NCBI GenBank assembly: GCA_963727525.1
Contig: CAVSGO010000005.1
Location: forward strand, 544,001 to 608,000
Reading direction: 5' to 3'
DNA length: 64,000 nt
From: an uncultured bacterium
Lineage (GTDB): Bacteria; Krumholzibacteriota; Krumholzibacteriia; LZORAL124-64-63
Part shown: piece after piece, positions 19,909-60,986 of the stretch
How positions within the stretch are numbered: the first letter of the stretch is position 1
Layout of the letters: the number at the start of each line of letters is the position of its first letter
Program-made: the position numbers and the translations under genes
Notes under the pieces: generated by a model
Seen by the model: the letters and a program-made list of their open reading frames with translations, nothing else
Database searches by the model: none
What the model was told of the DNA's origin: nothing

Positions 19909-20039
19909 ACCTGCTCCTTTGCGATGGCTACTCCAGCATCGCCTTCCGGTCCCGTCTGACAGGGCATGCCGGATGGCGCCTGCTCACCTGTCGCGTGTCC
20001 GAGGCGGGGCAGCGGGATGCCGCCCCTGTCGGTTCCGCT

Positions 20040-21233
<1,194 letters not shown>

Positions 21234-21260
21234 GACCGGCAACCTCCTCGCGGGGCGTTC

Positions 21261-23342
21261 CTACGCGCCCACGTACAGCCGCGTGATATTCGCGGCGATC
21301 TTATCCGGCACGCGTTCATAGCGCGCCAGCTGCATGGTGTACACGCCCCGCCCCTGGGTCAACGACCGGAGCTGGGTGGCGTACCCGAACATCTCGATGA
21401 GCGGCACTTCTGCCTGGACGGTGCGATCCTCGCGGATCCGCTCCATGCCGGTGATCTTGCCCCTCTTGGCATTGAGGTGACCCGTGACCTCGCCCAGATA
21501 GGACTCCGGCACGACCACCTCGACATGCATGACCGGCTCGAGCAGAACCGGCCCGGCGTCGCGCGCGCCGTTCCAGAAAGCTTCGCTGGCGGCATACGCG
21601 AAATCCGCCGCCATCGACTCACCCTCGGCCTGCGCCGCACCCAGGACCGTGATCTGCAGATCCACGAGAGCGTATCCCGCCAGAATCCCGGTCTCGGCCG
21701 CTTGTCGGGCGCCGCCCTCGATCGCAGCCACGAACTCGGCCGGCAGGGCGTCCGGTCCGAGCTTGTTCGTGAAGCCCACACCAGTACCGTATTCGCCCGG
21801 CGCCAGCCCCAGCTTCACTTTGGCGTAGTTGCCGCGCCCCACGAGCTCCCGCCTGTGCTCGAACTCGTACTCCACAGCCTTGGTGATGGTCTCGCGGAAA
21901 GCCACCTGGGGCCGCCCCACGTTGCAGGCCACCTTGAATTCGCGCTGCAGGCGATCGGCGATGATCTCCAGATGCAGCTCGCCCATGCCCCAGATCACGG
22001 TCTGCCCGCTGTCGGGATCGATCTTCACCTGGAAGGTGGGATCCTCGTAGCTGAGCGCCTGCAGGGCATCGCCGAGCTTGTCACCGTCGGCCTTGGTGCG
22101 CGGCTCGATGGCCACGTAGATCACCGGCTCGGGGAATGTCATCGCCTCGAGCAGGATCGGCGCCTCCAGGTCCGACAACGTCGAGCCCGTACGCAGTTCC
22201 TTCGGCCCGACGAGCGCCACGATGTCGCCGGTGCGGGCCTCGGGCAGCTCCTCGCGCTTGTCGGCGTGCATGCGGAAGAGCTTCTGCACGCGCTCGCGCT
22301 TGCCGGTGGTCACGTTCAGGGCCACCTTGCCGGCCTCGAGCGAGCCGCTGTACACGCGGGCGAAGGCCAGCGTGCCGGCGTGCTGGTCGGTGACCAGCTT
22401 GAAGACGAGCGCGCTCAGCGGCGCGTCATCATCGGGATCGCGGCTGATGGCCTCGCCGGTGCGGGGATCGGTACCCTTCACGGCCGGACGGTCGAGCGGC
22501 GACGGCAGGAAATCCACCACGCCGTCGAGCAGACGTTGCACGCCCTTGTTCTTGAGGGCCGAGCCGCAGAACACCGGCACGAGTTCGTCGCGCAGGGTGC
22601 CCAGGCGCAGAGCCGCCCGGAGCTGATCGACGCTGGGCTCCTGCTCGGCGACGAACAGTTCCATGACGCTCTCGTCGATCTCCGCGGCGGCCTCCACCAG
22701 TGCCGCGCGGGCCCGGGCCACCTCGTCGCTCATCTCGGCCGGCACAGGGACCTCGTCCCACGTGGCGCCCAGGTCCTCGTCGTGGGAGACGAAGGCGCGC
22801 ATCTCGATGAGGTCCACCACACCGCGGTACGCGTCCTCGGCACCGATAGGCAGTACCACGGGCACCGGCCGCGCGTGCAGGCGATCCTTCATCATCTGCA
22901 CCACGCGCCAGAAGTCGGCGCCCAGGCGATCCATCTTGTTGACGAAAGCGAGGCGCGGCACGCTGTACTTGTCGGCCTGTTTCCACACGGTCTCGCTCTG
23001 CGGCTCCACGCCGCCGACACCGCAGAACACCGCCACAGCCCCATCCAGGACGCGCAAGCTGCGTTCGACTTCGACCGTGAAGTCCACGTGCCCCGGCGTG
23101 TCGATCAGGTTGATCCAGTGATCGCGCCATTGGGTCGTCGTGGCGGCCGAGGTGATCGTGATGCCGCGCTCCTTCTCCTGCTCCATATAGTCCATCTGGG
23201 CGGCGCCGTCATCGACCTCGCCTGGCTTGTGCACACGGCCGGTATAGAACAGGATCCGCTCAGTCGTCGTCGTCTTACCGGCGTCGATATGAGCCATGAT
23301 CCCGATATTCCGGACCCTGGACAGTGCCACCTTGCGACTCAC
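21261..23342 (-). CDS. fusA: Elongation factor G family protein with divergent domain IV
   Basis: [30 protein letters not shown]; lies between rpsG and tuf; GTG start. Confidence 0.95.
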
Positions 23343-23536
23343 GCAAGTCTCCCAGCTGCGCGACGGTGGAAAAACTTCCACCCGCGACAAAATGACGCGC
23401 GCAGGACCATGCCGGTCTGCACGACTCCCTTGCCTCTAGCCCCCTCGCATCCGTGCGCGGGTGGCGTGATCAGGCTATTGCGATGTTTCGATCCGTCTGC
23501 TTTGTCCAGCGCTGTAGGAACGAACGAGAGGGACCT

Positions 23537-24007
23537 TTACCAACGGCAGTGGGCGAACGCCTTGTTCGCATCAGCCATGCGGTGGGTATCCTCGCGCTTC
23601 TTGATAGACGGTCCTTCGTTCTTTGCTGCCAGCATGAGCTCGGCCGCGAGCCGTTCCGCAAAGGTGTGCTCGGGCCGGGTTCGCGCGAATCCAATGATCC
23701 ACCGCAGGGCCAGCTGGGTCCGCCGCTCGGGTCGGACTTCCACCGGCACCTGGTAGGTGGCGCCACCGATTCGCCGAGACTTCACCTCGACACCCGGTTT
23801 CACGTTGTTCAGAGCCGAGCGGAAGATATCGATGCCTTCCTGCCCCGTCCTATCCTTGATGAGGTCGAAGGCGCCATAGATCGACCGCTCCGAAGTGCTG
23901 CGCTTGCCATCGAACATGGTATAGTTGATCAGCTTCGTCACCAGCACATCACCGTGACGGGGGTCGGGCGGGAGATTTCGCCTCTCCGGGGAACGACGTC
24001 GCGACAT
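23537..24007 (-). CDS. rpsG: 30S ribosomal protein S7
   Basis: SRRIGGATYQVPVEV; MADANKAFAH. Confidence 0.98.
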   Translation of the reverse strand: MSRRRSPERRNLPPDPRHGDVLVTKLINYTMFDGKRSTSERSIYGAFDLIKDRTGQEGIDIFRSALNNVKPGVEVKSRRIGGATYQVPVEVRPERRTQLALRWIIGFARTRPEHTFAERLAAELMLAAKNEGPSIKKREDTHRMADANKAFAHCRW

Positions 24008-24035: not shown

Positions 24036-24413
24036 CTACTTATTCTTGGGCCGCTTGGCCCCGTACTTCGAACGACCGCGGCGCCGACCGTCCACACCGG
24101 ACGCATCCTGAGTACCGCGGATGATGTGGTATCGCACACCCGGCAGATCCTTCACACGGCCGCCGCGCACGAGCACGATGCTGTGCTCCTGCAGGTTGTG
24201 ACCCTCGCCGGGGATGTAGGCCGTCACCTCGATGCCGTTGGTCAGACGCACGCGTGCGATCTTGCGCAGCGCGGAATTCGGCTTCTTCGGCGTCTGGGTG
24301 TACACGCGGGTGCACACGCCCTTGCGCTGCGGGCACGACTGCAGGGCCGGGCACTTGCTCTTCGTTTCCGGCGCGGTACGGCCCTTGCGGACCAACTGAT
24401 TCAGTGTCGGCAA
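24036..24413 (-). CDS. rpsL: 30S ribosomal protein S12
   Basis: [23 protein letters not shown] start. Confidence 0.99.
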
Positions 24414-24574: not shown

Positions 24575-27500
24575 TTACTCCAGAGCGCTCTCGGCCTCGG
24601 ACTCCAGATCGTACACGCCCGCTTCCTGCTGGACGGCGGACATGGCCTCGAGCTGCTCCACGGCGTCGAGGATATGAATGTCCTCGACCTCGGGATCTTC
24701 CACCGCCAGACCCTTGAACCGGTTCATACCGGTCCCGGCGGCGATGAGGTGCCCCATGATGACGTTCTCCTTCAAGCTCCGCAGCTCGTCGCGCTTGCTG
24801 CGGGTGGCCGCGTCGGTCAGCACCCGGGTCGTTTCCTGGAAACTGGCCGCACTGATGAAGGAATCCGTAGTCAGGCTCGCCTTGGTGATACCCAGCAGGA
24901 GCGGTTCGAAGGTCGCCGGTTCCAGCTCGGGCTCGCCGCGCTCGCGCAGCCTGGTATTCTGCTGCAGGATCTCGAGATTCGCCTCGTCCACGCCCTTCTT
25001 CGGCACCTGCTCGCCCTCGAGGAACGGCGTGTCGCCGGGGTTGAGGATCGCCACTTTCTGCAGCATGCGCGAGACGATGATCTCGATGTGCTTGTCGTTG
25101 ATCTTCACACCCTGCAGCCGGTAGACCTCCTGGATCGCGTTGACCAGATAGGTCTGCACGGCGCCGACACCCTTGATCGCCAGGATGTCCATCGGGTTGA
25201 TCGGACCCTCCGTGAGGCGGTCGCCGGCCACCACCCGCTCACCCTCGTAGGTGCGCACGTGCTTGCCGTGAGGGATCAGGTACTCCTTCTCCACACCGCT
25301 CTCGCCGCGTACCACGATTCGGCGCAGGCCGCGGGTCGTGCCACGGAACTCCACGACGCCGTCCAGTTCGGTGACGGTGGCCGTGTCGCGCGGGCGCCGG
25401 GCCTCGAAGAGCTCGGCCACACGCGGCAGACCGCCCGTGATGTCGCCACTCTGGGCCACCTCGCGCGGGATCTTCACCAGGTGCGTACCGGCCGACACCT
25501 CCTCGCCGTCCTGCACCAGCAGGAAGGCCCCGGTGGGGATGATGTACTCGCCCACCTTGCGGCCGCTCTTGGCAGCCACGATGCGGATGGCGGGGTGGAT
25601 GCCCTTGTCCATGGGCTCGGTGATCACCGGCTGCTTCATCTTCGAGCGTTCGTCGAGCTCCTCGCTCAGGCTGATGCCCGGGATGATGTCGACGTACTCC
25701 ACCACACCGACCTTCTCGCTCAGGATGTAGTCGGCGAACGGGTCCCACTCGAAGATCGGCGCGCCGGCTTCCACCTGTTGATTGGCGCCCGCCAGCACCT
25801 TGGCACCATATGGCAGCGTCATGTGGCTGCGCGTGGTCCCATCGCCCTTCACCAGCGAGATCTCGCCCTTGCGGCCGATCGAGATCATGTCGCCATGATC
25901 GTTCTTGACCAGCTTCACTTCCTTGTTGAACACGATCTTGCCCGCTGCAGCCGCACTCTTGACATTCTGCTCGACAATACGGCTCGCCGTACCACCGATG
26001 TGGAACGTCCGCAGAGTGAGCTGCGTGCCCGGCTCGCCGATCGACTGCGCCGCCATCACGCCCACCGGCTCGCCAATGTCCACCAGCTTGTCCTCGGCCA
26101 GGTTGTAGCCGTAGCACAGGGCGCAGACGCCGCGCTTGCTCTCGCAGGTGAGCACCGAACGCACGGTCACCAGCTCGACGCCCGCATCCTCGATGCGATC
26201 GGCGACCTCCTTGGTGATGAGCTGGCCGGCCTCCACGAGTACGTTGTCGTGCGCGTCGAACACGTCGTCGGCGGAAGAACGGCCGATGATGCGCTCGGAC
26301 AGGCCCTCGATCGTCTTCTCGCCTTCCTTCAGAGCCGACATGTCGATGCCGCGCAGCGTGCTGCAGTCGATCTCGTTGATCACGATATCCTGCGCCACGT
26401 CCACGAGACGGCGCGTCAGGTAACCGGCATCGGCCGTCTTGAGGGCCGTGTCGGCCAGTCCCTTGCGGGCGCCGTGCGTGGAGATGAAGTACTCGAGCAT
26501 CGTCAGACCCTCGCGGAAGTTCGCGATGATCGGCTGCTCGATGATCTCGCCGAAACCGCCCGTGATCTTCTTCTGCGGCTTGGCCATCAGACCGCGCATA
26601 CCCGCGAGCTGCTTGATCTGGTCGGCCGAGCCTCGCGCGCCCGACGCGTTCATCATGTACACCGGATTGAAGCCCTGGTCGTACTGCGCGAGATGGTCGA
26701 ACATGCGGTCGCGCACCTCATTGGTCACCTGCGTCCACTTGTCGATCACCTTGTTGTAGCGCTCGCGGTTGGTGATGATGCCCTTGCGGTGCTGGTCGAC
26801 GATGCCCTCCACCACCCGCTGCGCCTCGGAGATGATATCGAGCTTCTCGGGCGGGATGAGGATGTCGTCGATGCCGATCGAGATGCCGCCCTCGGTCGCA
26901 TGGTGGAAACCCAGTTCCTTGAGCCGGTCGAGGAAATTCATGCACGCCGTGGTGCCCAGGCGGTGGTGCACCTGGCCCACGATCTGCGCCAGCGGCTTCT
27001 TGCCGAGCGGACGGTTCACGAACTCCATGCCCACGGGCAGGATCTGGTTGAACATGAGGCGACCCACGGTGGTCTCCAACATGCCCGTCTCCGGGAACCG
27101 CACCTTGATGCGCGCGTGCTTGGTCACCAGGCCGGCGTCGTACGCCGCCAGCGCGTCGTCCGTGCCGGCGAAGATCTTCCCCTCGCCCCGGTCGCCGGTG
27201 CGGTCGAGCGTGAGGTAGTAGCAGCCGAGCACCATGTCCTGGCTCGGCGTGGCGATGGGCTCGCCGCTCGCCGGCGAGAGGATGTTCAGGGGCGACAGCA
27301 TGAGCAGCCGCGCCTCGAGCTGCGCCTCGTAGCCCAGCGGCACGTGCACGGCCATCTGGTCACCGTCGAAGTCGGCGTTGAACGCCGTACACACCAGCGG
27401 ATGGATGCGGATCGCCTTGCCCTCGATGAGCACCGGTTCGAAAGCCTGGATGCCCAGGCGGTGCAGCGTCGGGGCGCGGTTCAGCAGCACCGGGTGGTCG

Positions 27501-28747
27501 CGAATGATCTCCTCGAGGATGTCCCAGACCTCGGGGCGCTCCTGCTCCACGAGCTTCTTGGCGCTCTTGACGGTCTGGACGTATCCCTTCTCCTCCAGCT
27601 TGCGGATGATGAAGGGCTTGAACAGTTCCAGCGCCATGCTCTTGGGCAGGCCGCACTGGTAGAGCTTGAGCTCCGGTCCCACCACGATCACCGAACGGCC
27701 CGAGTAGTCGACGCGCTTGCCCAGCAGGTTCTGGCGGAAACGCCCCTTCTTGCCCTTGATCATGTCGCTGAGCGACTTCAGCGGCCGGTTGCCCTGCCCC
27801 TTCACCGCGCGCGACCGCCGGCCGTTGTCGAAGAGCGCGTCCACGGCCTCCTGCAGCATCCGCTTCTCGTTGCGCAGGATCACGCCGGGCGCCTTGATCT
27901 CGATGAGCTTCTTCAGGCGGTTGTTGCGATTGATCACGCGCCGATACAGGTCGTTCAGATCGCTCGTGGCGAAGCGCCCGCCATCCAGCGGCACCAGCGG
28001 TCGCAGATCGGGCGGCAGCACGGGCACGCAGTCGAGGATCATCCAGTCCGGCTGATTGTTCGACTGGCGGAACGCGTCCACGACCTTGAGCCGCTTGAGC
28101 TCCGACTTCTTGCGCTGTACCGACGTCTCGGTCTTGATCTTCCCGCGCAGGTCCTGGTCGAGAGCATCGAGGTCGAGACCGGCCAGCAGCGCACGGATCG
28201 CCTCGGCGCCCATGTCCATGGAGCACTCCCAGTCGGGGTGCTCCTCCTTCATCTCCCACCAGTCCTCGTCGCTGATGATGTCGCCGACCTTCATGTCGGT
28301 GTTGCCGGGATCCACGATCACGCTCGACTCGTAGTAGAGCACGCGCTCGAGATCCTTCAGCTTCATGTCCAGCAACTGACCGATGCGGCTGGGCAAGCCC
28401 TTGAAGAACCAGATGTGCGCGATGGGCACGGCCAGTTCGATGTGACCCAGCCGCTCGCGGCGCACCTTGCTCTGCGTCACTTCGACGCCGCACTTGTCGC
28501 AGACGATCCCGCGGAACCGGATGCGCTTGTACTTGCCGCAGTTGCACTCCCAGTCCTTCACGGGACCGAAGATGCGCTCACAGAAGAGCCCGTCCTTCTC
28601 CGGCTTGAAGGTCCGGTAATTGATCGTCTCCGGCTTCGTGACCTCGCCGTAGCTCCACTCCCGGATCTTGTCCGGCGACGCGAGCTGGATCAAGATCGCG
28701 CTGCTGTCCTGATGGCGGGTGTCGTCTCGCTGCCTCAGTCCGAGCAT
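24575..28747 (-). CDS. rpoC: RNA polymerase beta' subunit
   Basis: NADFDGDQM; Zn finger CNCGKY...CDKCG; SI3-type insertion after TLRTFHIGG. Confidence 0.99.
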
Positions 28748-36784: not shown

Positions 36785-37978
<1,194 letters not shown>

Positions 37979-38083
37979 CAGCGGCTTCCTCCCGAGTCAA
38001 ATCACTTCACAGCAGTGCGCCGGCTGCACGCGCAGTCCGGCTGCGTCCGTTCTTCCTCACGGCCGTTCCCAACGACTATGGTC

Positions 38084-38159
38084 TGGAGCCCACGAGCAGA
38101 ATCGAACTGCTGACCGCTTGCTTACCATGCAAGTGCTCTACCGGCTGAGCTACGTGGGC
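38084..38159 (-). tRNA. tRNA-Thr(GGT)
   Basis: Cloverleaf; anticodon arm CTTGC-ATGGTAA-GCAAG; encoded CCA. Confidence 0.97.
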
Positions 38160-38190
38160 CCGATCCATTTCTTCGTCACAACAGCCCTGC

Positions 38191-38266
38191 TGGAGCGGGA
38201 AACGGGGTTCGAACCCGCGACCCTCAGCTTGGAAGGCTGATGCTCTGCCAACTGAGCTATTCCCGC
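38191..38266 (-). tRNA. tRNA-Gly(TCC)
   Basis: GCGGGAA...TCAGC-CTTCCAA-GCTGA...TCCA. Confidence 0.97.
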
Positions 38267-38300
38267 TCCATACCGCCCGCGGTCTCGCGGATCGTCTCGG

Positions 38301-38386
38301 TGGTGGGGGGGGGAGGATTCGAACCTCCGTAGGCTACTGCCGACAGATTTACAGTCTGTTCCCTTTGGCCACTCGGGAACCCCCCC
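38301..38386 (-). tRNA. tRNA-Tyr(GTA)
   Basis: 86 nt with long variable arm; ACAGA-CTGTAAA-TCTGT; ends ACCA. Confidence 0.96.
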
Positions 38387-38442
38387 ACGCGTATCTTGCG
38401 CATGGGTCGGCCCCGGAAACGCGATGGGGCCTTCGCTAACGC

Positions 38443-38518
38443 TGGAGCTGGCGAGAGGACTTGAACCCCCAACCGCCTCATTACAAGTGAGGTGCTCTAC
38501 CAGTTGAGCTACGCCAGC
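38443..38518 (-). tRNA. tRNA-Thr(TGT)
   Basis: GCTGGCG...CCTCA-CTTGTAA-TGAGG...TCCA. Confidence 0.97.
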
Positions 38519-38582
38519 ACAAGTCCTCGGGCTGGCATCCGCCACCCTCGCGCGAGCGCGAACGCCGGCGCAAGGGACGGGG

Positions 38583-38612
38583 AATATAAATCTGGTTATG
38601 GCGCACTGTCAA
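38583..38612 (-). promoter_or_regulatory. sigma70-type promoter of the tRNA-tuf operon
   Basis: TTGACA-18 nt-TATATT followed by a GC-rich discriminator, about 65 nt upstream of tRNA-Thr. Confidence 0.75.
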
Positions 38613-38616
38613 GGCG

Positions 38617-40125
38617 CTATCCCCGGTCGACGCCTGGCTTTCCGCGGGCGCGGCCGGCCTCCTGATCGAGGGGCGTCACCCGGGCCCCCCGCGGACCATC
38701 GGTCACCTGGAACCCGTGGGTGCGGATCTCGTCCCGCAACGCATCGGCCCTCAACCAGTCGCGCCCCTGGCGGGCAGTTTCCCGTGCCGCCACGAGATCT
38801 CGCACCTCAGATGGAATTTCCATACTAGAAATCAAATCTCGCAATCCATCGGGAAATAGCCCCAGGATCTGGTCCGCGGCGTCCAGGAGCTCGACGGCGG
38901 ACGCGAGGGGGGCAAGATCGACGGGTCGGTCATCGGTGGCCTCGAGATACTGGTTCAGATCGCGCACGAGGGCGAAGATCGCGCCCAGGGCGCCGCCCGA
39001 GTTGAAGTCGTCGTCGAGGGCGGCGAAGAACTGCCGCTGCGCCTCGCCCACCGCCAGGGAGAAGGCCTGGCCCGGCAGCGAGACGAGTCCCTCGGGCAGC
39101 GGTGAGGTCCCGGCTTCCCGGTCGCCCACCGCTGCGCGCGCCACGAGAAGCCGGCGCACGCCCCGGCGCAACCGGTCGTACGCCGCCGCCGCCTCCCGCA
39201 GCCGATCGTCCCCGAAATCCAACTGGCTGCGGAAATGGACGCTCAGCAGGAAGAAGCGGATCACCTCCGCGGGATATCGTTGCATGAGGCCGTCAAGGTC
39301 CAGGACGTTGCCGTCGGATTTCGACATCTTGCGGCCGTCGAGGTTGAGCATCCCGTTGTGCAGCCAGAAGTTGGCGTACGGCTCGCCGGTGGCGCAGCAG
39401 CTCTGAGCCACCTCGTTCTCGTGGTGGGGAAACACGAGGTCTCGCCCACCACCGTGGAAATCGAAGTGCGGGCCGAGATACGCGGTCGCCATCACCGAGC
39501 ACTCGATGTGCCAGCCCGGTCGGCCACGCCCCCATGGCGATGCCCAGCCCGGTTCGTCCGGCGGCGCCGCCTTCCAGAGCGCGAAATCGAGGGGATCCTC
39601 CTTCGCGTCGCCCACCTCGACCCGGATGCCGCTGCGCATGTCGTCGACGCGCCGCCCGGAGAGCCGCCCATACGCATCGTAGGAGCGCACGCGGAAGTAC
39701 ACGTCGCCGGCTGCCGCGTAGGCATGCCCCGCCGCCACGAGACGCTCGATGAAGGCGACGATGGCGGGGATGTGCTCCGTCACCCGCGGATAGTGGTGCG
39801 CCGGCCAGACCATCAGGGCCCGCGCGGCCACGTGGTAGGCCGCGATGTTGCGCTCGGCCACCACCGACGCCGTCACGCCTTCCTCCCGGGCGCGGACGAT
39901 GATCTTGTCGTCGATATCCGTGAAGTTCTGGACATGCGTGACCGCGAATCCCCGGTACTCCAGGTAACGCCGCACCACGTCGCAGGCCACGAAGGCGAAC
40001 ATGTGGCCCAGGTGAGGCCGGTCCTGCACCGTCAAGCCGCAGACGTAAAGCCCCACGTGCCCCGGCTGCACGGGCACGAACGCGCGCTTCGCGCCCGTGA
40101 CCGCGTCGTAGACCCGCAGGGTCAC
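38617..40125 (-). CDS. cysS: Cysteine--tRNA ligase
   Basis: [33 protein letters not shown] at 40125 overlaps the ddl stop. Confidence 0.96.
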
Positions 40126-41141
40126 GCCAGATCCCGGGTGTGGGGTATCCGAGCCTCGCGACAGAGGTCGTCGAGCAGCGCGCCGAAGGAGATGCCCACG
40201 GCCGCGGCCGCCTTGGGCACCAGGCTGTGCGCCGTCATGCCCGGAATGGTGTTGAGCTCGAGGCAGAAGTACCGATCGCCATCGAGCCGGAAATCCACCC
40301 GCGCCAGCCCGCGGCAGCCCACCAGGTCGAAGAGCCTCAACGCGTCGGCGCACATGTTCTCGTAGACCGGAGAGTTCACGGGCGCCGGTACGATGTACTC
40401 GCTGGCACCGGACGTGTACTTGTGCGCGTAGTCGTAGAAACCGTCGCGCGGCCTGATCTCGAGCAGCGGCAAGCGCCGGCCGAGCAGGATGGCGGCCGTC
40501 AGTTCGCGGCCGGGGATGTAACGCTCCAGCAAGATGTTCGCGGTACGCCCCTCGGCCGCGTCGGCTACGCGGGTGAAGGTGGTCGCGAAACCATCGGGGC
40601 CGGCAACGATCTCCACCCCCACGCTGCTGCCGGCGCCGTTGAGCTTGACGACGATGGGGTAGCCCAGTTCCTGACCCACGCGGTCCTGCACATGATCCAG
40701 GGTGAGCTGGCCGGGGATGCCGGCGCGCGGCGCCTGCAGGGGGTCCTGCCCGGCCATGGCCAGCGGCCCCCGCGCATCGCGATCCCAGGTCACGAGCAGC
40801 CAGTCGGGCGTGGGGACGCCAGCACTCGCCATGATCCTCTTGCTGGCCGCCTTGTCCATGGCCAGGGCGCTGGCAAGCGGCCCGGAAAGGGCATAGCGCA
40901 CACCGAGCACGTCGAGCACGGCTTGCAGATGCCCGTCCTCGCCCTCGCCGCCGTGCATCGCCGGAAACACCACGTCCCACGTGCCGAGGTCGGGATGTCC
41001 GATCACGTCGGCCACGCGGTCCAGCGCCACGGACGTCACGTCGTGCCCGGCCTCGGTCAGCGCTGCAGCCACGGCGCGACCGGATTCGAGCGAAATCTCA
41101 CGTTCGGGGGAATCTCCCCCCATCAGCACGGCGATGCGCAA
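40122..41141 (-). CDS. ddl: D-alanine--D-alanine ligase
   Basis: GGDSPEREIS, HGGEGEDG, GSSVG, FYDYAHKY, ELNTIPG; TTG start after AAGGAGG. Confidence 0.92.
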   Translation of the reverse strand: MRIAVLMGGDSPEREISLESGRAVAAALTEAGHDVTSVALDRVADVIGHPDLGTWDVVFPAMHGGEGEDGHLQAVLDVLGVRYALSGPLASALAMDKAASKRIMASAGVPTPDWLLVTWDRDARGPLAMAGQDPLQAPRAGIPGQLTLDHVQDRVGQELGYPIVVKLNGAGSSVGVEIVAGPDGFATTFTRVADAAEGRTANILLERYIPGRELTAAILLGRRLPLLEIRPRDGFYDYAHKYTSGASEYIVPAPVNSPVYENMCADALRLFDLVGCRGLARVDFRLDGDRYFCLELNTIPGMTAHSLVPKAAAAVGISFGALLDDLCREARIPHTRDLA

Positions 41142-41250
41142 CGCCGTCCTCCTTGCTCTTCTCTCGAAGACTGGACCTACCTCGTTCACGGGGAGGTTCA
41201 TTGTGCCGGTGGTTGCCGCGAGCGTCAACAGGCAGGCACGTCGGCGAGTT

Positions 41251-41733
41251 TCAATCGACGGTGGTGAGGAACACGATCGCCTGGGCCGTGATGCACTCCC
41301 CGCGGCCTTCCGGCCCGAGCCCCTCGCCGCGCGTGGCCTTCACGTTGACGGCCGCGATGGGCAGCCCGAGCGCCGCCGCCAGGGTCGCCCGCATCTCGGC
41401 GCGGCGCGGCGCGATGCGCGGCTCCTCGGCGATCACGGTGCAATCGACGTTGCCCACCCGGAAGCCTGCCGCCGCGACCATGGCCAGCACGCGCCGCAGG
41501 AGGTCGAGGCTGTCGGCTCCTGCCCAGGCTGGATCGGTGTCCGGGAAGTGCGTGCCGATGTCGTCGAGGCCGGCCGCCCCGAGCAGGGCGTCGATGATGG
41601 CGTGAGTGACCACGTCGGCGTCGGAATGGCCGCCGAGGCCGCGGGCCTGCGCGTCGAAGCACACTCCGCCGAGTATGCACGGCCGTCCGGCGACGAGAGG
41701 ATGGCGATCGTAACCCAGCCCGACACGGAACAC
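41251..41733 (-). CDS. ispF: 2-C-methyl-D-erythritol 2,4-cyclodiphosphate synthase
   Basis: [25 protein letters not shown]. Confidence 0.95.
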
Positions 41734-41918
41734 GCGGCACGCCTCCTGCGGAAAACACGATCCAGCGCGGCTCGATCCGACTCTAGTGCGAGGGCGTCCC
41801 GGCAGCAATGCCGTTCTCCCGCACCGGTTCGCTGCGTCACTGCGTCATGAATCCACCAAGCACGGGCAGCACGTCACGCACGATGGCCCTCATCAGGTAG
41901 GTCTCGACAGGAGGGCGC

Positions 41919-43268
41919 TCAGCCGTCGACCCGGCAGATCGAGAATCGGTACTTCCCCGAGCGTTCTTGCGGAATCCGGTCGACGGGCACGATGTCCGCG
42001 CGCATCGCCGCCCCCAGCGTGCGGTGCACGGTGTCGACGAGCGCCTGCTCGGTGGCCGCGTCGTAGGCCTCGCCCTGCACCAGGTTGATCGTGAGGTGGT
42101 CGCGCGCGTCCTGCACCATCTGCATCTGCAAGATGCCGGGGTACCGCGTCAGCGTGTTCTCGATGAGCGAGATACCAGCCACGCGCGAGCCGTCAAGAGC
42201 CCGCAGGAAATCGGCCACGCGACCAGTGACCTGCTCCATGAGCGGCAACCCCCGCCCGCACGGGCACTCCCGATCGGAGGGCACGCCGTGATCGCCCACC
42301 TCGTAGCGCAGCATCGGCATGCCGAGATTCACCAGCTCCGTCACCACGATCCGCCCGTCCTCGCCCGGCGCGCACGGCGAGCCGTCGTCGCGCAGAAACT
42401 CCACGATGTTGTGCTCGAAGTTCAGGTGCAGTCCCGCGTGCCGCTCGCACTCGCAGGCGATCAGGCTCACCTCCTCGCAGCCGTAGCGATTGGTCACCGG
42501 AACGCCGAACACCTCCTCGATCACGGCGCGCTCGGCGTCCAGCAGCATCATGCTCGAGGTCACGATGCCCGTGGGCCGCACGCCGTGATCGCGACCGCGC
42601 AGCGCGTCGGCGAGGATGAACACGCTGTGCGCGTGGCCGTACAGCAGCCCGGGCCGCAAGGCGTGCCACTCCCGCACGAAGCGGTCGATCGCCGCGTCGT
42701 CGATGTGCATGGTGTCGAGGTAGATCAACCGATCCTTCAGCGCGAGACGCAGGCGGTTGCGCCACGTCTGCGGCGTCGGCGGATTGCCCCACACCGCGGC
42801 GATCGGTTGCCCGAGCCGCCACCCCGACCACCCATCGCTACGCAGAGCCGCAGCGTTGCGCCGCTGCACCCCCCGCGCGTCGCAGAACACTCGCAGCGCC
42901 ACCCCCGTGGATCCGCCCGTCTTGGCCGGCACCAGATCCTCCCGCCGAAATCGCGACGACAGGATCGCATCCAGATGCTCGCGCACGTCCGCCTTCGTCA
43001 GCAGCGGCAACGACGCCAGGTCCTCGATCGTGTTCACCACTGCCGGCTCGATCCCTGCCGTATCGAGCCGCTCCCGATGGAACGGCGACGTCGCGTGCGC
43101 ATGCATGAGCACGGCCCGCAACCGTTGCCGCCGCAGCCCTTCCAGCCGCTCCCGGTCCCACCACTGGCTCCGCTGCAACTGCCGCAGCTCCTTCAGCCGC
43201 ACGCTCCCCTCGTACAGGTCCCACGCCGGCTCCAGCACGCCGGCCACGATACGATCCGGCAGCCTCAT
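41919..43268 (-). CDS. CapK/PaaK-like adenylate-forming (phenylacetate-CoA ligase family) enzyme
   Basis: KTGGSTG, YGCEEV, MPMLRYEVGD, GR.AD, SGKYR; ATG overlaps the stop of the upstream gene. Confidence 0.85.
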   Translation of the reverse strand: MRLPDRIVAGVLEPAWDLYEGSVRLKELRQLQRSQWWDRERLEGLRRQRLRAVLMHAHATSPFHRERLDTAGIEPAVVNTIEDLASLPLLTKADVREHLDAILSSRFRREDLVPAKTGGSTGVALRVFCDARGVQRRNAAALRSDGWSGWRLGQPIAAVWGNPPTPQTWRNRLRLALKDRLIYLDTMHIDDAAIDRFVREWHALRPGLLYGHAHSVFILADALRGRDHGVRPTGIVTSSMMLLDAERAVIEEVFGVPVTNRYGCEEVSLIACECERHAGLHLNFEHNIVEFLRDDGSPCAPGEDGRIVVTELVNLGMPMLRYEVGDHGVPSDRECPCGRGLPLMEQVTGRVADFLRALDGSRVAGISLIENTLTRYPGILQMQMVQDARDHLTINLVQGEAYDAATEQALVDTVHRTLGAAMRADIVPVDRIPQERSGKYRFSICRVDG

Positions 43269-43855
43269 GCCTGCGAGTCCTTTCCGGGCTGCGGCGCCAC
43301 AGGGATGTACTCCGCGCTGCCCGCGTAGCTGATGACCTTCGCGGGCACGCCGCCGACCACCGCGTTCTCCTCGGTATCCTTGACCACCACCGCGTTGGCG
43401 CCGATCACCGTGCCGTCGGCGATCGTGATGGGCCCCACGACCTTGGCGCCAGGCGCGATGTACACGCGATCGCCGATGTGCGGCGCCCCCCACACATCGC
43501 CCTTGCGCGCGAGACCGATGGTCACGCCTTGCGACAGGTTGCAGTCGCATCCCATGACCACGTCGGTGTGCAGCACGATCTGGCCGAAGTGGCCGATGTA
43601 CAGGCCCGGACCGATCCGGCAATCGGGCGAGATCGAGATCCCCGTGGTGATCTCCACCCACTTCCACCACATATGGTACAACCCCATCACGAGATGGCGT
43701 ATTCCCGGGACCAGGCGGCGCTGGTTCAGAGCGTGCCCGGCCCGGTAGCACACGATGGCCCAGAGTCCCTGGTTCTCCAGGAGCAGGCGCAGCGTCGATT
43801 GGCGGCTGCCGTAGCGCCGCAACCGCCCGATGTCGGCCTTCAGGTTCGCGAACAT
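43265..43855 (-). CDS. Serine-acetyltransferase-like hexapeptide O-acetyltransferase (WcaB/EpsC type)
   Basis: IGPGLYIGH, QGVTIG, IGANAVV, VGGVPAK. Confidence 0.85.
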   Translation of the reverse strand: MFANLKADIGRLRRYGSRQSTLRLLLENQGLWAIVCYRAGHALNQRRLVPGIRHLVMGLYHMWWKWVEITTGISISPDCRIGPGLYIGHFGQIVLHTDVVMGCDCNLSQGVTIGLARKGDVWGAPHIGDRVYIAPGAKVVGPITIADGTVIGANAVVVKDTEENAVVGGVPAKVISYAGSAEYIPVAPQPGKDSQA

Positions 43856-43858
43856 CGG

Positions 43859-44968
43859 CTACGCTCCCGCCGCGGGCCGGCCGGCGGCGGCAAGCCCGTG
43901 CTGGTAAAGGTCCACGTGCCGCGCCACGCAGCGGTCCCAGCTATACTCGGCGACCGCCCGTTCCCGCGCCTGCCGCGCCAGCCGGCGCCGCAGCAGAGGA
44001 TCGGCCAGGTACTTACCGATGGCTTCCGCGAGCGCTCGTGCATCGCCCGGCGGTACCAGCAAGCCCGACACGTCATCCACGATCGCCTCGGAGTTCCCGC
44101 CCACGTCAGTGGCCACCACCGCCGCGCCCGCCAGCATGTACTCGAGCACCGCGTTGGAGAAGCCCTCGGTATCCGAGCACAGCACGCCCACCTGCAACCC
44201 CGTCAGATAGGCCGGCACGTCGGACAGGCGTCCCGCGAAGACGGCGCGCTCACCGAGCCCCAGTTCCCGCGCCCGCGCCTCGAGCGTGGGCCGCAGATGC
44301 CCATCGCCTACCACATGCCAGCGCACATGGGGAAAGTCGCCGGCCAGCAGGCCCGCAGCCTCCACGAACAGGTCGATGCGCTTCACCTCGCGGTTCATGT
44401 TGCCAACGATCCCCACGTCCGTCGTGGGTCCTTCGTGATCATGGAACGGGATAGCCTCCGGATCCAGACCGTTGGGGATCACCGTGATCCGGTCGGGGGC
44501 GAGGCCGTCGGCATGCCGGAAGTGGTCGCGAACCGCCTCGGAATTGGCCACGAAACCGGTGAAGCGGGGGTAGGCGCGCCGCATCAGGAACTCCTGGCGC
44601 GGCGTGCGCCAGAAACCCAGGTCGCGGAACGACGCCAGACGTACCGGCACCCGGGCCGCGCCGGCCGCCCAACCGCCCAGGACGGTGGCGTCCTGGAAGA
44701 AGGTCTGCACCACGTCGATACGCTGCTCGCGCAGGTATGCGGCGAGCCGTCGCCCCACCATCAACGCCCCCGGCGACAGCAAACGACGCACCCCGAGGGC
44801 GCGCGTGGGACAATCGGCCACCGGGATGGGGTCGTGGCCGGGCCGTAGCGTGACCAGGTGCGGCTGCACCGCGGACCGATCGAGCCGCTGCACGAGGCCG
44901 GCGAGCTGGGTCTCCGTACCACCACCGCGTTCCAGGGCATCGATGCAGTAAACGACGCGGATCGGCAC
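43859..44968 (-). CDS. Glycosyltransferase family 4
   Basis: GGTE, IPNG, EGFSNAVLEYM, ATDVGG. Confidence 0.9.
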   Translation of the reverse strand: MPIRVVYCIDALERGGGTETQLAGLVQRLDRSAVQPHLVTLRPGHDPIPVADCPTRALGVRRLLSPGALMVGRRLAAYLREQRIDVVQTFFQDATVLGGWAAGAARVPVRLASFRDLGFWRTPRQEFLMRRAYPRFTGFVANSEAVRDHFRHADGLAPDRITVIPNGLDPEAIPFHDHEGPTTDVGIVGNMNREVKRIDLFVEAAGLLAGDFPHVRWHVVGDGHLRPTLEARARELGLGERAVFAGRLSDVPAYLTGLQVGVLCSDTEGFSNAVLEYMLAGAAVVATDVGGNSEAIVDDVSGLLVPPGDARALAEAIGKYLADPLLRRRLARQARERAVAEYSWDRCVARHVDLYQHGLAAAGRPAAGA

Positions 44969-45020
44969 GTTGGCGTCCTCACGGTCCGGATCAGGAATGC
45001 GTCAAGCGTGACCAAAGGAG

Positions 45021-45050
45021 TCGACATGAACGGCCGGGAGTATATATCAT
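45021..45050 (+). promoter_or_regulatory. Candidate sigma70 promoter in a divergent spacer
   Basis: TCGACA-18 nt-TATCAT within an AT-rich core between divergent genes. Confidence 0.45.
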
Positions 45051-45104
45051 AGTTGCCCTCGACGCGCGACGACGCGGATACGTGAACCACGGCAGCGGTG
45101 ATTC

Positions 45105-46187
45105 TTGAAACGAGACCTCAAAGCCCTGCTCCTCGCTGCCCCCGGGTTCCAGGCATTCTGCCGCCTGCTCACCCGGCGGCACGTACGGGCGCTGATGTAT
45201 CATCGCTTCCGCTCTCAGGACGCCCCGGCCGATCACCATCCCGACGCGGCGACTCTCGACTGGCAGATGCGCCAGGTCAAGGCTCATCACGCCGTGTGGA
45301 CGGTGTCCCGCCATCACGATGCCGTCACGGGCAAGCGACCGGTCGACGCCGCCTGCCCCGTCGTGATCACCGTGGACGACGGCTACGCCGACTTCCACGA
45401 CATCGCGTTTCCGATCTTCCGGCAGCACGGCATCCCCGCCTTGCTCTACGTCACCACGGGGTTCGTCGACGGCCAGGTGTGGTTCTGGTGGGACCAGGTC
45501 GCCTATCTCCTCGACGCGGCGCCCGCCGGCGCCACCGCCTTCGCATACGACAGCGAGACATTCGCGCTGGATCTCGCCACCCGCGAAGGCCGTCGCGCTG
45601 CCTGGAACCAGCTGTGCGATCGCTGCCGTTTCCTGCCCGATGAGCACAAGCATGCGCTCATCGCCGCCCTCGCCGCTCATCTCGGTGTCGCCCAGCCAGG
45701 GCGGCCGCCGGCGGAATATGGCCCGGTCACCTGGGACCAGATCCGGATGATGCGCGCTGCCGGCATGGAATTCGGGGCCCACACGGTGTCCCACCCCATC
45801 CTCACGCGCATCGACGCGGCCAAGCTGCCACACGAGTTGCGCGGTTCGCGCGAGCGCCTCGAGACCGAGCTGGGCGAGGCCGTGCCCTGGTTCTGCTATC
45901 CCCAGGGCGGTCCGGCCGATTTCTCGGCCGACATCGTCGCCGGTGTCCAGGCCGCCGGGTTCGCGGGCAGCTACCTGGCGTACCAGGAGGTCGTCGTCGC
46001 CGCCACGCCCTACACGATGCCGCGCTATTGCGTGTCCGCCGACCCCATCGCCTTCCGCTGGGTCCTCTGCGGCGCCGAGTACCTCGGCTTGCGCCTGCGC
46101 CGCCTGCTGGGTCGATCCACGGGCCCGGGCGCCCGCTACTGGTCCGGGTCGGAAGCTGCATCGTCCGCGGAGGTGGTCTATGACTGA
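45105..46187 (+). CDS. Polysaccharide deacetylase (CE4/NodB-like)
   Basis: LMYH, ITVDDG, GAHTVSHP, FCYPQG. Confidence 0.88.
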   Translation: MKRDLKALLLAAPGFQAFCRLLTRRHVRALMYHRFRSQDAPADHHPDAATLDWQMRQVKAHHAVWTVSRHHDAVTGKRPVDAACPVVITVDDGYADFHDIAFPIFRQHGIPALLYVTTGFVDGQVWFWWDQVAYLLDAAPAGATAFAYDSETFALDLATREGRRAAWNQLCDRCRFLPDEHKHALIAALAAHLGVAQPGRPPAEYGPVTWDQIRMMRAAGMEFGAHTVSHPILTRIDAAKLPHELRGSRERLETELGEAVPWFCYPQGGPADFSADIVAGVQAAGFAGSYLAYQEVVVAATPYTMPRYCVSADPIAFRWVLCGAEYLGLRLRRLLGRSTGPGARYWSGSEAASSAEVVYD

Positions 46188-47064
46188 CCAGCCCCTCGTC
46201 TCCGTCGTCACGGCCGCCTACAACATGGGTCAGTACCTCGACGAGGCCATCACTTCGGTCTTGCACCAGGATTACCCGCACGTGCAGGTCATCGTGGTCG
46301 ACGACGGCTCCAGCGACCCTGTCACGCCGCAGGTGCTCGAACGTTATGCCGACCATGCGCAGGTAACGGTGATCCGCCAGGCCAACGCCGGACAGACGGT
46401 GGCCAAGAACCGCGGCCTGGCGGCGGCCAAGGGCGACTTCGTGGGCTTCTGCGACGCCGACAACGCCTGGCTGCCCGACAAGCTGAGCCGCCAGCTCGCC
46501 GCCTTCCGGGAGCGGCCCGACCTGGGCGTGGTCTACGGCGACCTGCAACTCATCGGCACCGAGGGCGAGGATCTGCCCACGCCCGCAGTGGCGCGCCATA
46601 GCGGGCGTATCACGGGCAAGCTGCTGGCCGACAACTTCGTCACCTTCAACACCACGCTCACACCGCGACGCATCCTCGAGGAGATGGGCGGATTCGACGA
46701 GCGCCTGCGCATGGCCATCGACTACGATCTGTGGCTGCGCATCTCGGTGAAGTACGAGTTCCTCCACCTGCCCACCCCGCTGGTGCGCTACCGCATCTGG
46801 GGCGGCCAGATGTCCCACCGCACGGGCGAACGCCTCGAGAGCTACTTCCGCCTGCTCGAGAATTTCCTGGCCCAGCACCCCGGCGCGGTGAACCAGGCCG
46901 ACGTCCGCCGCGCCTACGGCTACACCTACACGACCCGCGCCAACTGGCACCGCTCCCAGGGCCGCCGCCAGGAAGCCTGGGCCGACTACCGCCGTGCCAT
47001 GCAGAAGAACCCCCTCGACGCGCGCCTGTGGAAATGCACGGCGCGCTGCCTGCTGGGGCGCTGA
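46180..47064 (+). CDS. Glycosyltransferase family 2
   Basis: VSVV..AYN, VVDDGS, FCDAD, DYDLWLR; ATG at 46180. Confidence 0.9.
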   Translation: MTDQPLVSVVTAAYNMGQYLDEAITSVLHQDYPHVQVIVVDDGSSDPVTPQVLERYADHAQVTVIRQANAGQTVAKNRGLAAAKGDFVGFCDADNAWLPDKLSRQLAAFRERPDLGVVYGDLQLIGTEGEDLPTPAVARHSGRITGKLLADNFVTFNTTLTPRRILEEMGGFDERLRMAIDYDLWLRISVKYEFLHLPTPLVRYRIWGGQMSHRTGERLESYFRLLENFLAQHPGAVNQADVRRAYGYTYTTRANWHRSQGRRQEAWADYRRAMQKNPLDARLWKCTARCLLGR

Positions 47065-47066
47065 AC

Positions 47067-48053
47067 ATGGCCCTCGCCTGCCGCTGGGCCACGCCGGAAG
47101 ACCTCCCCGCCCTCGAGCTGTTCCTGGCCGAGACCTACGGTGCCAATTCCGTGCAGGCCCTCCCCGGCCGCTGCCGCTGGCTGTACTTCGAGCATCCCGA
47201 CGGCCTGCACGTCACTCTCTGCGAGGAGACGGACGGCCGCCTCGTGGGCTGCTGCGGCCATCTGCCGGTCACGCTCCGCGTGAACGACCGCAACGTCACC
47301 GCCGCATTCGGCATCGATTTCATGGTCCACCCCGCGTACCGGCGGCGCGGCATCGCCCGCGAGATGCTCCGCCTGCGCCTCGAGCATTTCGACGTGAGCC
47401 TGTCGAGCGGCCAATCGGAGGCCATGGGCTCGGTCTACGCCGCCCACGGCGGCAGTGTGAGCTTCCCGTTTCACCGGGCCCTGCGAGTGCGGCGGATGAC
47501 GCCCGCGCTTTCCCCGCGCATCCTCGCCCGCGACGCCCTGGGCCTCGCACTCGCCCTGCGCTCGCCCCGCCGCAAGGCCGCCCGCCGATCCGCAAGCCTC
47601 GATCCCGCGCTCCCCTTGCCCGAGGCCGCAGACGGGGCAGCCCCCCTCGCATCGCTGCCGTCCCTGCAATGGCGCTTCCAGCGCGGGCCGTATCGCGACT
47701 ACGCCGTATCCGTGTTGCTGACCGACAATGCGCCGGTCGGCGCGGTGATCTCCCGGTTCACGGCAGACTGCGAGCGGATCCTCGCCCTTGGTGGCCCGGC
47801 CTCCAGGCACGTGGACCTGCTGAATCTGGCGGCCAGAACCTCTCCCTCGCGCGCCGTGGAGGTGCTGACGACCAGTCCCGGCATGGTCGTTGCTGCCCGG
47901 TCAGCGGGATATCTCGTGCGTCCGCTCGACGCCCTGGCGGTCGCCGTGTCGCGCGATGCTTCGCTGATCGCCGCACTCCGGCAGCAGGGCCTCGCCCTCA
48001 TGGCCGGCGACTCGGACACGGATCTGCTGCGCCGCCCCCGGTCCGATGCCTGA
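47067..48053 (+). CDS. GNAT-family acyltransferase
   Basis: DFMVHPAYRRRGIA CoA-binding motif; C-terminal GDSD; ATG at 47067. Confidence 0.75.
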   Translation: MALACRWATPEDLPALELFLAETYGANSVQALPGRCRWLYFEHPDGLHVTLCEETDGRLVGCCGHLPVTLRVNDRNVTAAFGIDFMVHPAYRRRGIAREMLRLRLEHFDVSLSSGQSEAMGSVYAAHGGSVSFPFHRALRVRRMTPALSPRILARDALGLALALRSPRRKAARRSASLDPALPLPEAADGAAPLASLPSLQWRFQRGPYRDYAVSVLLTDNAPVGAVISRFTADCERILALGGPASRHVDLLNLAARTSPSRAVEVLTTSPGMVVAARSAGYLVRPLDALAVAVSRDASLIAALRQQGLALMAGDSDTDLLRRPRSDA

Positions 48054-50269: not shown

Positions 50270-50306
50270 TGAGGAGCATCGAAAGCGATTCCAGTTGGAG
50301 TAGGGC

Positions 50307-52067: not shown

Positions 52068-52141
52068 CACCAATCCTGGCTATAACGGACCGCAGGGTTT
52101 CCCTTATCCACCCCGATCCGCGCACTAAAGGTCACTCTCGA

Positions 52142-52170
52142 TTGTCCGGCCGCGGCTGCGATGGTAAATT
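52142..52170 (+). promoter_or_regulatory. Candidate sigma70 extended -10 promoter
   Basis: TTGTCC-17 nt-TAAATT with TG at -15/-14. Confidence 0.4.
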
Positions 52171-52229
52171 GTGGAGCGCGCCACAACGGCCGACCGCTCA
52201 TGAGGAGGGTGATCGTGGAGTTCTCGGGC

Positions 52230-54887: not shown

Positions 54888-54987
54888 CGAGGATGCGCCA
54901 ATGCTACGTTGTGGCGACGGCAGCCAGGTTAGCTCGCGACAGCGTACAGCTTCCCGTCACCCCTGAAATGTGGATCGGACAGTTTTC

Positions 54988-56016: not shown

Positions 56017-56170
56017 AGTAGATCCACCCAGCGCCACGTGTCGGCGTTGTTGCCGTCAGCTGCCTTGATGCCGGTGACCGGCTCCGACTGGAGCCGGAAC
56101 GACCCGCGCCGACTCCAGTCTAGCTACTGGCGTCGGCGCGGAGCAATCTCGAATCGATCGAGCCGCTATT

Positions 56171-57562: not shown

Positions 57563-58024
57563 GTGTAGCCTCCAGTGGCATTCTACCGGCAATCCGGGTG
57601 TACCGTAGCGATCAAGCAAAATACGTGCCCCTGGCGCTCCGGCGACGCGGCAGCGCCATACAGCGAAGCGGCTCCCGGGTTCCCGGACAAATCAAGCCTG
57701 AATATAAGCACCTCTGCGGTCTTGGACAGACTATTCGGAATAAAGTAGCTAATTGGTCGCAACTACGCGGTTTCCGTACCCCCCCCCCAACACAGAGAGA
57801 GCCCGCCGGGCCGGTTGTATCGCTTCGCCATTCATTCGCGTACCCCCTGATCGGCGCTCCCCGGACCGTGCAGAATCCACGGGTGGCGGTTTGGACCTCG
57901 GTCGGTATATCCTACGCGGACTTCGCACCGAGATGGCGACATCAGCAATACTCCTGGGGCGCGATTCTTGAGAGTGCGCCATGGGCCGTAAGCGAACGAG
58001 CGTTCTGGAGACGAAGGAATTCAG

Positions 58025-60936: not shown

Positions 60937-60986
60937 CCGGATTCCAAGGTCGTTTCCGGCCTCCCGCTTGCTACCGCATCAATCCG

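Follow-up and report, generated by a model that had tools for sequence, protein, structure and literature searches.

A probable recycling-type EF-G in the fusA slot of a Krumholzibacteriota str operon, with an spdEFG1-type paralogue elsewhere in the genome

Introduction

Several lineages carry two specialised forms of elongation factor G (EF-G). The pairs spdEFG1/spdEFG2 and mtEFG1/mtEFG2 are described as subfunctionalised for translocation and recycling, respectively (PMC3150367, PMC4342817, PMC8203779). The spdEFG2 protein, represented by EF-G2 of B. burgdorferi, is a recycling-only EF-G, and the accounts of Margus 2011 (PMC3150367) and Atkinson 2015 (PMC4342817) place it in spirochaetes, planctomycetes and delta-proteobacteria. 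The present work concerns the EF-G encoded by fusA in the str operon of an uncultured member of the Krumholzibacteriota. The gene lies in a stretch of 64,000 nucleotides (contig CAVSGO010000005.1, positions 544,001 to 608,000), which was analysed as a whole and is referred to as the window. An earlier note, made from the letters of this stretch, had called the protein a probable recycling-type EF-G2 in the canonical fusA slot, with EF-G function split between two genes.

That proposal is supported as a reading of the genome. We put a rough probability of 0.55 on the fusA product being a recycling-type EF-G that arose from the lineage's own EFG I and is paired with an spdEFG1-type translocase. 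The protein would descend from the canonical EF-G (EFG I) of the lineage, and would still bind the ribosome and hydrolyse GTP, given its conserved G domain and its equally conserved domains II, III and V. Together with ribosome recycling factor (RRF) it would most likely serve only, or mainly, in the splitting of post-termination ribosomes. Translocation would fall to the spdEFG1-type paralogue, which has canonical loops, a three-residue insert in switch I and a basic C-terminal tail. We infer this division of labour, and the origin in situ, from the sequence states, the paralogue set, the distribution and the relative rates observed below.

The domain IV tip of the fusA product

The gene and the segments in which its product departs from canonical EF-G are:

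21261..23342, minus strand: fusA, the str-operon EF-G; 693 residues from the GTG at 23342; matches TIGR00484
21822..21857, minus strand: domain IV loop 1; the Gln, the first Gly and the Gln of GQ are replaced; canonical relatives read RQSGGRGQYGHV
21741..21767, minus strand: domain IV loop 2, NKLGPDALP; both Gly are replaced; canonical relatives read NKIVGGxIP
21600..21647, minus strand: domain IV loop 3; canonical relatives read DGSYHEVDSSEMAF
23184..23222, minus strand: start of the switch I segment, GEVDDG; the His-to-Asp change is common with spdEFG2-type proteins

The open frame extends to a TTG at 23390 (21261-23390, minus strand), giving 709 residues in one frame, on which the residues of the product are numbered. 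The public gene call for the identical protein has 693 residues and matches the GTG start at 23342. Pfam finds all five EF-G domains (GTP_EFTU, domain II, EFG_III, EFG_IV and EFG_C), and the P-loop and the RGITI motif are intact, in keeping with the canonical look of the GTPase motifs and of domains III and V in the earlier note. The protein exceeds the cut-off of the NCBIfam EF-G equivalog TIGR00484 (926.8 against 659.4 bits), a model that does not discriminate here, since the spdEFG1-type paralogue passes it too with 914.1 bits. Against PDB chains it scores 797.7 bits with bacterial EF-G, 564.5 with mitochondrial EF-G1 and 478.9 with mitochondrial EF-G2. It is 50-57% identical to canonical EF-Gs and 42-50% identical to the spdEFG2-type sequences.

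The state of the tip was scored at 14 positions (Q, G, G, G, Q in loop 1; G, G, P in loop 2; D, G, H, D, S, S in loop 3) after the window protein had been aligned with 102 further members of the EF-G family. Four of the 14 are retained in the window protein. The scores are 12-14 for 28 canonical EF-Gs of many phyla, 13-14 for 22 spdEFG1-type proteins and 12-14 for seven EFG II proteins; the departure of the window protein is far beyond chance. Within loop 3, the equivalents of His583, S588 and E589 are Ala, Met and Ala. The tip loops are of unchanged length and no indel separates the groups, so that "lost" here means residues substituted, not segments deleted. The loss of all three tip loops claimed in the earlier note thus stands as the replacement of 10 of the 14 key residues, while the loop segments themselves remain. 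Translation and a coordinate check found every loop and switch I string it had quoted in its place.

The same note had pointed to two changes before switch I, and one of them is informative. At the GEVDDG position His is present in 10/10 canonical EF-Gs of the class and 30/30 other canonical EF-Gs, and Asp in 16 of the 22 f1 proteins (f1 being the family of the window's genome) and in four of the six spdEFG2-type proteins. Within the class, the His-to-Asp change is confined to the 16 crown f1 genomes. The other, MDYM, is not diagnostic, because a relative with canonical loops (G027) reads MDYM too.

The EF-G paralogues of the genome

The assembly (4.66 Mb, 8 contigs, 96.7% complete) encodes three full-length EF-G homologues: the fusA product, an spdEFG1-type protein (L002) and an EFG II protein (L003). 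The remaining EF-G-like matches are weaker and correspond to TypA, LepA, EF-Tu and an IF2-like protein. A translocation-competent EF-G had been expected elsewhere in the genome, and the genome search found a second full-length EF-G in which all three loops are canonical, so the fusA product is not the sole EF-G. It co-occurs with the spdEFG1-type gene and with no other EFG I in this 96.7% complete genome. RRF is encoded once, by a single frr.

The spdEFG1-type protein (G000:C7:1701081-1703135) is 42% identical to the window protein and scores 14/14 at the tip (HRKQTGGSGQY, VVGGTIP and DGDSHAVDSSD). Its switch I reads HEVRGKDGVGATMDSM, with an insertion of three residues (KDG) where the canonical sequences have a three-column gap; such an insertion is given as a mark of spdEFG1 by Margus 2011 (PMC3150367). 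Its best PDB match is mitochondrial EF-G1 with 785.8 bits, the best bacterial EF-G chain scoring 629.0. It falls in a clade of support 100 with named spdEFG1 proteins of spirochaetes, planctomycetes, Bdellovibrio, Desulfosarcina and Fibrimonadales. After the conserved Tyr, the spdEFG1-type proteins (n = 12, L002 and the named loci) carry a basic C-terminal tail of 21-26 residues, and the canonical EF-Gs (n = 28) one of 16-24, with medians of 23 and 18.5; the tail of the window protein has 18 residues. The C-terminal extension of mitochondrial EF-G1 (EF-G1mt) is reported to prevent co-binding with RRF (Koripella 2021, PMC8203779). The basic tail of the spdEFG1-type proteins is reminiscent of that extension, but shorter.

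The third homologue has a degenerate P-loop (APHGVGKTS), no RGITI and canonical loops, and groups with the other EFG II sequences in a clade of support 100.

Distribution across the Krumholzibacteriota

The families sampled are coded f1 to f9. The phylum sample consisted of 200 genomes and the window's own, and an spdEFG1-type gene was called at E<=1e-220. By this threshold the gene is present in 81/86 genomes of f1, 12/12 of f5 and 9/9 of f6, the five f1 genomes without it being 62-82% complete, and it was detected in 0/93 genomes of f2, f3, f4, f7, f8 and f9. Among 40 relatives, a full-length spdEFG1-type gene was found in 22/24 genomes of f1, 3/3 of f5 and 3/3 of f6, and in 0/10 of f2, f3, f4 and f7. 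The two f1 exceptions are G003, with two fragments at contig ends, and G022, with none.

Of the 40 relatives, 38 yielded a str-type EF-G, the exceptions being G016 and G020, each 88% complete; together with the window's own this gave 39 proteins whose loop states could be compared. The ten genomes of f2, f3, f4 and f7, which have no spdEFG1-type gene, score 13-14. The three f6 genomes score 12, 12 and 14, the three f5 genomes 7, 9 and 10, and 22 of the 23 f1 proteins 4-8. A degenerate str-operon EF-G is thus seen only in families that have the spdEFG1-type gene, and the degeneration is graded, with f6 scoring above f5 and f5 above f1.

The sole f1 exception in loop state is also G022, whose str-type EF-G (L047, G022:C5:635231-637228) scores 14/14. 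This genome is 68% complete and yielded neither an spdEFG1-type gene nor EFG II. Its EF-G clusters with one from Chloroflexia (support 99); mis-binning or gene replacement could be the cause.

Outside the phylum, the EF-Gs that accompany spdEFG1 in a Desulfosarcina metagenome-assembled genome (MAG), in Bdellovibrio, in two planctomycete MAGs and in two spirochaete MAGs score 0-5, and the one in a Thermoanaerobaculia MAG 13. The wider collection from which these come holds 80 EF-G loci and is a sample, not a set of nearest relatives. It also includes a Deltaproteobacteria MAG (G046, L090/L186) and a Fibrimonadales MAG (G049, L099/L184) with one EF-G each at E<=1e-60, in both cases spdEFG1-type; in these genomes spdEFG1 may cover both functions, unless a second EF-G is simply missing from incomplete MAGs. 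Another spdEFG1-type gene (L095), 57% identical to the query and with the switch I insert, comes from a MAG labelled Saccharicrinis (Bacteroidota), a label outside the taxa given for spdEFG1 in the consulted portions of Margus 2011 and Atkinson 2015.

Residues lost and residues kept

The two paralogues were compared in the 21 f1 genomes that have both EF-Gs (210 genome pairs). The p-distances are:

Whole protein: str copy 0.328, spdEFG1 copy 0.248
Domain IV: str copy 0.50, spdEFG1 copy 0.33
Domain V: str copy 0.29, spdEFG1 copy 0.175
G domain: str copy 0.26, spdEFG1 copy 0.20
Domain III: str copy 0.27, spdEFG1 copy 0.25

In 204 of the 210 pairs the str copy has diverged further, and overall its divergence is 1.32 times that of the spdEFG1 copy. 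Such faster evolution, the domain IV distance of 0.50 and the position of the window copy among the most degenerate (4/14) would be expected of a decaying remnant without function. This explanation is very improbable. Each of the 39 str-type genes has an uninterrupted reading frame, and the GTPase motifs are preserved. Conservation of the G domain and domain III matches that seen in the paralogue (ratios 1.34 and 1.08), and S587, S/T588, E589 and F592 persist in 21-22 of 22 f1 proteins. The str-type gene is not decaying as a whole.

Loop 3 is changed selectively. In the 22 f1 proteins the equivalent of His583 is kept in 0/22, V585 in 0/22 and D586 in 4/22, and S587 is kept in 21/22, S588 as Ser or Thr in 21/22, E589 as Glu or Asp in 21/22 and F592 in 22/22. 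The six spdEFG2-type partners outside the phylum show the same pattern, with His in 0/6 and Ser or Thr at 588 in 5/6. According to Zhang 2015 (PMC4666400), H583K, S588P and E589A block translocation by E. coli EF-G; recycling is normal in the loop-1 deletion and point mutants, and most loop-II point mutants recycle, S588P and the loop-II deletions being impaired. The f1 pattern, with His lost and Ser-Ser/Thr-Glu kept, fits this mutagenesis. Loop 1 points the same way: its two glycines are described as universally conserved, with one of them replaced in each recycling-only factor studied, the second by Asp in mitochondrial EF-G2 (EF-G2mt) and the first by Ala in B. burgdorferi EF-G2 (Koripella 2021, PMC8203779). 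In the window protein the first is replaced by Val and the second is kept.

The crown f1 loops are not random. They are derived, partly conserved and acidic, with R-E/D-x-x-G-K-x-N-F/Y-A in loop 1 and G-G-x-x-x-E-G/E-E/D-S-S/T-E in loop 3, and the His-to-Asp change before switch I is recurrent. These features would also suit a remodelled tip with another ribosome-associated role, such as rescue, release from hibernation or protection, and the Tet-type ribosomal protection proteins are relatives of EF-G that differ in domain IV. We regard such a role as improbable. The window protein falls well short of the Tet models (382.4 bits, against a tet_protect cut-off of 775) and was rejected as a protein of that type, and its pattern matches the known recycling-only factors. 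Unless the spdEFG1-type protein performs both functions, the genome offers no other likely recycling factor.

Phylogenetic origin and weighing of the evidence

A FastTree phylogeny of 103 sequences used 28 of the 67 sampled canonical loci. A quick IQ-TREE phylogeny (LG+C20 with posterior mean site frequencies, PMSF) was built on 62 sequences, including 11 of 23 from f1, three of 29 spdEFG1 sequences of the class and 20 canonical ones, with the loop and switch I columns dropped. G050 was left out of every alignment and tree, L097 is partial and was omitted, and a motif filter dropped ten EFG II loci. The trees contain no mtEFG2 sequence; mitochondrial EF-G2 was compared by PDB score (478.9 bits).

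In the FastTree phylogeny the window protein falls in a clade of support 99 with all str-type EF-Gs of the class (f1-f7) and a MAG labelled Ignavibacteria, and the six spdEFG2-type partners form a separate clade, also of support 99. The IQ-TREE phylogeny recovers the class clade (96) and f1 with f6 (96), and sets five of the partners apart (97), with the Bdellovibrio partner elsewhere. When the spdEFG2-type partners are removed, f1 with f6 receives 96 and the class clade 92. When f1 and f5 are removed, f6 joins f2, f3, f4 and f7 in the class clade at 95 and the partners move away, as long-branch attraction to f1 and f5 would predict. The earlier note had proposed such a tree as a check. The free trees put the protein with the canonical EF-Gs of its own class and not with the spdEFG2-type proteins, and the approximately unbiased (AU) tests do not reject a union with the latter.

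Several observations weigh against our reading. Three alternatives survive the AU test: a clade of f1, f5 and f6 with the six partners, which has a log-likelihood (lnL) 6.56 higher (p 0.60), one of f1 with the six partners (27.8 lower, p 0.17), and a single clade of all canonical-loop EF-Gs that excludes these (14.6 lower, p 0.31). The families f1, f5 and f6 are kin, and the association within the phylum may be one historical event. Two genomes hold spdEFG1 beside a str EF-G with a nearly or fully canonical tip, namely a Thermoanaerobaculia MAG (L169), in which the str-operon EF-G scores 13/14, and an f6 genome (G039, L033), in which it scores 14/14; the presence of spdEFG1 thus does not by its mere occurrence mean that function is split. 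These may be early stages, or cases of redundancy, and the presence of spdEFG1 looks necessary yet insufficient for loop decay. Finally, the window protein is the sole f1 member with Met at the S588 equivalent and Ala at the E589 equivalent, and by the rules of E. coli EF-G recycling can be assumed with less confidence for it than for its relatives.

Since the AU tests reject none of the alternatives, the origin has to be judged from synteny, the loop gradient and the support in the free trees. When residues and indels were scanned for signatures shared with the canonical proteins of the class or with the spdEFG2-type proteins, nothing diagnostic emerged except D60. The same difficulty is described in Margus 2011 (PMC3150367). 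An origin of the degenerate str EF-G in situ is probable on these grounds, because the sister family of f1, f6, has retained canonical loops, the gene has stayed in its operon context and the decay is graded within the clade.

It is conversely unlikely, though it deserves slightly more weight than the other alternatives, that the protein is of recycling type but a true spdEFG2 orthologue by descent, either acquired with spdEFG1 as a replacement of the resident fusA or belonging to an old spdEFG2 clade. Such descent would accommodate the AU result for f1, f5 and f6 with the six partners and its slightly higher lnL, as well as the GEVDDG change shared with four of six spdEFG2-type proteins, the common loop-3 pattern and the fact that the spdEFG2-type genes of Bdellovibrio and Schlesneria also follow rpsL-rpsG. 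The f6 str EF-Gs argue otherwise: with scores of 12-14 of 14 and a position sister to f1 (96), they indicate that the f1 loss arose inside the lineage, whatever the deeper tree. The departure of the spdEFG2-type sequences from the class clade (95) without f1 and f5, and the PDB scores of 797.7 bits for bacterial EF-G and 478.9 for mitochondrial EF-G2, also speak against it.

A different possibility is that the str protein is still the main, dual-function translocase and the spdEFG1-type protein accessory or condition-specific. The canonical slot before tuf, presumably highly expressed, the TIGR00484 match and the spdEFG1 genes beside near-canonical EF-Gs in f6 and the Thermoanaerobaculia MAG would all agree with it. 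We nevertheless hold it to be rather unlikely. The window protein has substitutions at His583, at the Gln and first Gly of loop 1 and at both Gly of loop 2, and single changes such as H583K are sufficient to block E. coli translocation (PMC4666400). It is the spdEFG1 copy that evolves more slowly in 204 of 210 pairs and that keeps 14/14, and its gene is nearly constant in f1 (81 of 86 sampled genomes, the misses being incomplete).

Two placements in the trees are of separate note. The IQ-TREE phylogeny puts the partner from Bdellovibrio sp. (L170), at weak support, among canonical EF-Gs from proteobacteria and elsewhere, a hint that loop decay happened independently there as well. The EF-G of the MAG labelled Ignavibacteria (L118) is nested in the Krumholzibacteria class clade beside f2 (94, 89, 90), and its NCBI label may be a misassignment.

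Context in the str operon

The fusA gene sits in the usual slot of the str operon, in the order rpsL-rpsG-fusA-tuf:

24036..24413, minus strand: rpsL, ribosomal protein S12 (TIGR00981, 227.6 bits)
23537..24007, minus strand: rpsG, ribosomal protein S7, upstream of fusA in the operon (TIGR01029, 200.3 bits)
20040..21242, minus strand: tuf, EF-Tu, directly downstream of fusA
24575..28747, minus strand: rpoC, upstream of the str operon, given for context

The long open reading frames on the opposite strand (e.g. 19995-23756) are the usual shadows of high-GC coding DNA, and nothing supports them as genes. A second EF-Tu gene, an open reading frame of 397 residues, lies at 36785-37978 (minus strand), about 15.5 kb from the str-operon tuf. 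The contigs of many relatives stop just past fusA, a pattern that assembly breaks at duplicated tuf copies would produce. The GC content of the window drops from 0.67-0.70 (38001-48000) to 0.58-0.61 (50001-64000).

Homologues of the fusA product at 66-76% identity carry the source names "Candidatus Krumholzibacteria/Krumholzibacteriia bacterium". Among the 120 homologue matches listed, every source name shown is "elongation factor G". With both paralogues passing the EF-G model under one name, paralogue mix-ups and the faster evolution of the str copy can lead annotation and marker-based placement astray. EF-G has served as a marker for placing Krumholzibacteriota genomes (PMC10936416).

A graded series of EF-G states

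The EF-G splits known from mitochondria, spirochaetes, planctomycetes and delta-proteobacteria are always seen in the finished state. Families f1, f5 and f6 present graded stages beside the same spdEFG1-type partner, and the sister families without that partner serve as controls. We suggest, tentatively, that the Krumholzibacteria preserve living intermediates on the way from a dual-function to a recycling-only EF-G, and that "spdEFG2" is a grade that arises repeatedly from the str-operon EF-G where spdEFG1 is present, instead of a single old subfamily. The course of events would have begun with the gain of spdEFG1, followed by the loss of the loop-2 glycines, then of the second Gly of loop 1 and then of His583; the change of Gln to an acidic residue in loop 1 and of His to Asp at switch I would have come last. 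If so, GEV-D-DG, the acidic tip and the retained Ser-Ser/Thr-Glu would be convergent adaptations to recycling.

With this series one can ask which residues recycling can do without, and in what sequence the determinants of translocation disappear. It also offers biochemistry a set of natural variants, from 14/14 in f6 down to 4/14 in the window.

Comparison with known EF-G systems

The window protein resembles canonical EFG I in operon position, its five domains, GTPase motifs, length and TIGR00484 match, and its highest PDB scores are with bacterial EF-G chains. It differs in keeping 4 of 14 tip residues instead of 12-14, and in having a canonical-loop paralogue in the genome.

EFG II, of the Thermus thermophilus EF-G-2 type, is likewise an EF-G paralogue kept beside another EF-G. 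In the description of Margus 2011 (PMC3150367) it retains the domain IV loops and has a degenerate G domain without RGITI, which fits L003 and not the window protein. Pseudomonas aeruginosa also has two EF-Gs, EF-G1A and EF-G1B, one of them in the str operon, with a reported functional difference; both are EFG I according to PMC3832671, and the pair does not involve an spdEFG1-type protein.

Mitochondrial EF-G2 is alike in that it pairs with an EF-G1-type translocase carrying the switch I insert and has a substituted loop-1 Gly, a change held to disfavour insertion into the decoding centre (Koripella 2021, PMC8203779). The two proteins are only distantly similar (478.9 bits, where bacterial EF-G reaches 797.7), and the Gly concerned differs, being the first, changed to Val, in the window protein and the second, changed to Asp, in EF-G2mt.

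The closest counterpart is spdEFG2. Like it, the window protein co-resides with an spdEFG1-type protein and no other EFG I, and has degenerate loops, the loss of His583 and the GEV-D-DG change; the f1 str proteins as a group lose His583 and keep Ser/Thr-588, the window's own having Met. In some spdEFG2 bacteria, too, the gene follows rpsL-rpsG. This was so for two of the six degenerate partners examined in 1.5-kb flanks (Bdellovibrio and Schlesneria), and among such pairs there is nothing unusual in finding the degenerate EF-G at the fusA position. Unlike spdEFG2, the window protein is much less diverged, at 50-57% identity to canonical EF-Gs; the free trees place it with the canonical EF-Gs of its class, outside the spdEFG2-type clade; and its C-terminal tail is of canonical length (18 residues, against 3-18 in spdEFG2-type proteins). 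The Krumholzibacteriota lie outside the taxa listed for spdEFGs in the available text of PMC3150367 and PMC4342817. A literature search, which did not extend to supplementary tables, found no report of this pair in the Krumholzibacteriota or of graded states. The Krumholzibacteriota pair is of a known kind, an EF-G pair with a probable split of function, in a new lineage and with intermediate states preserved.

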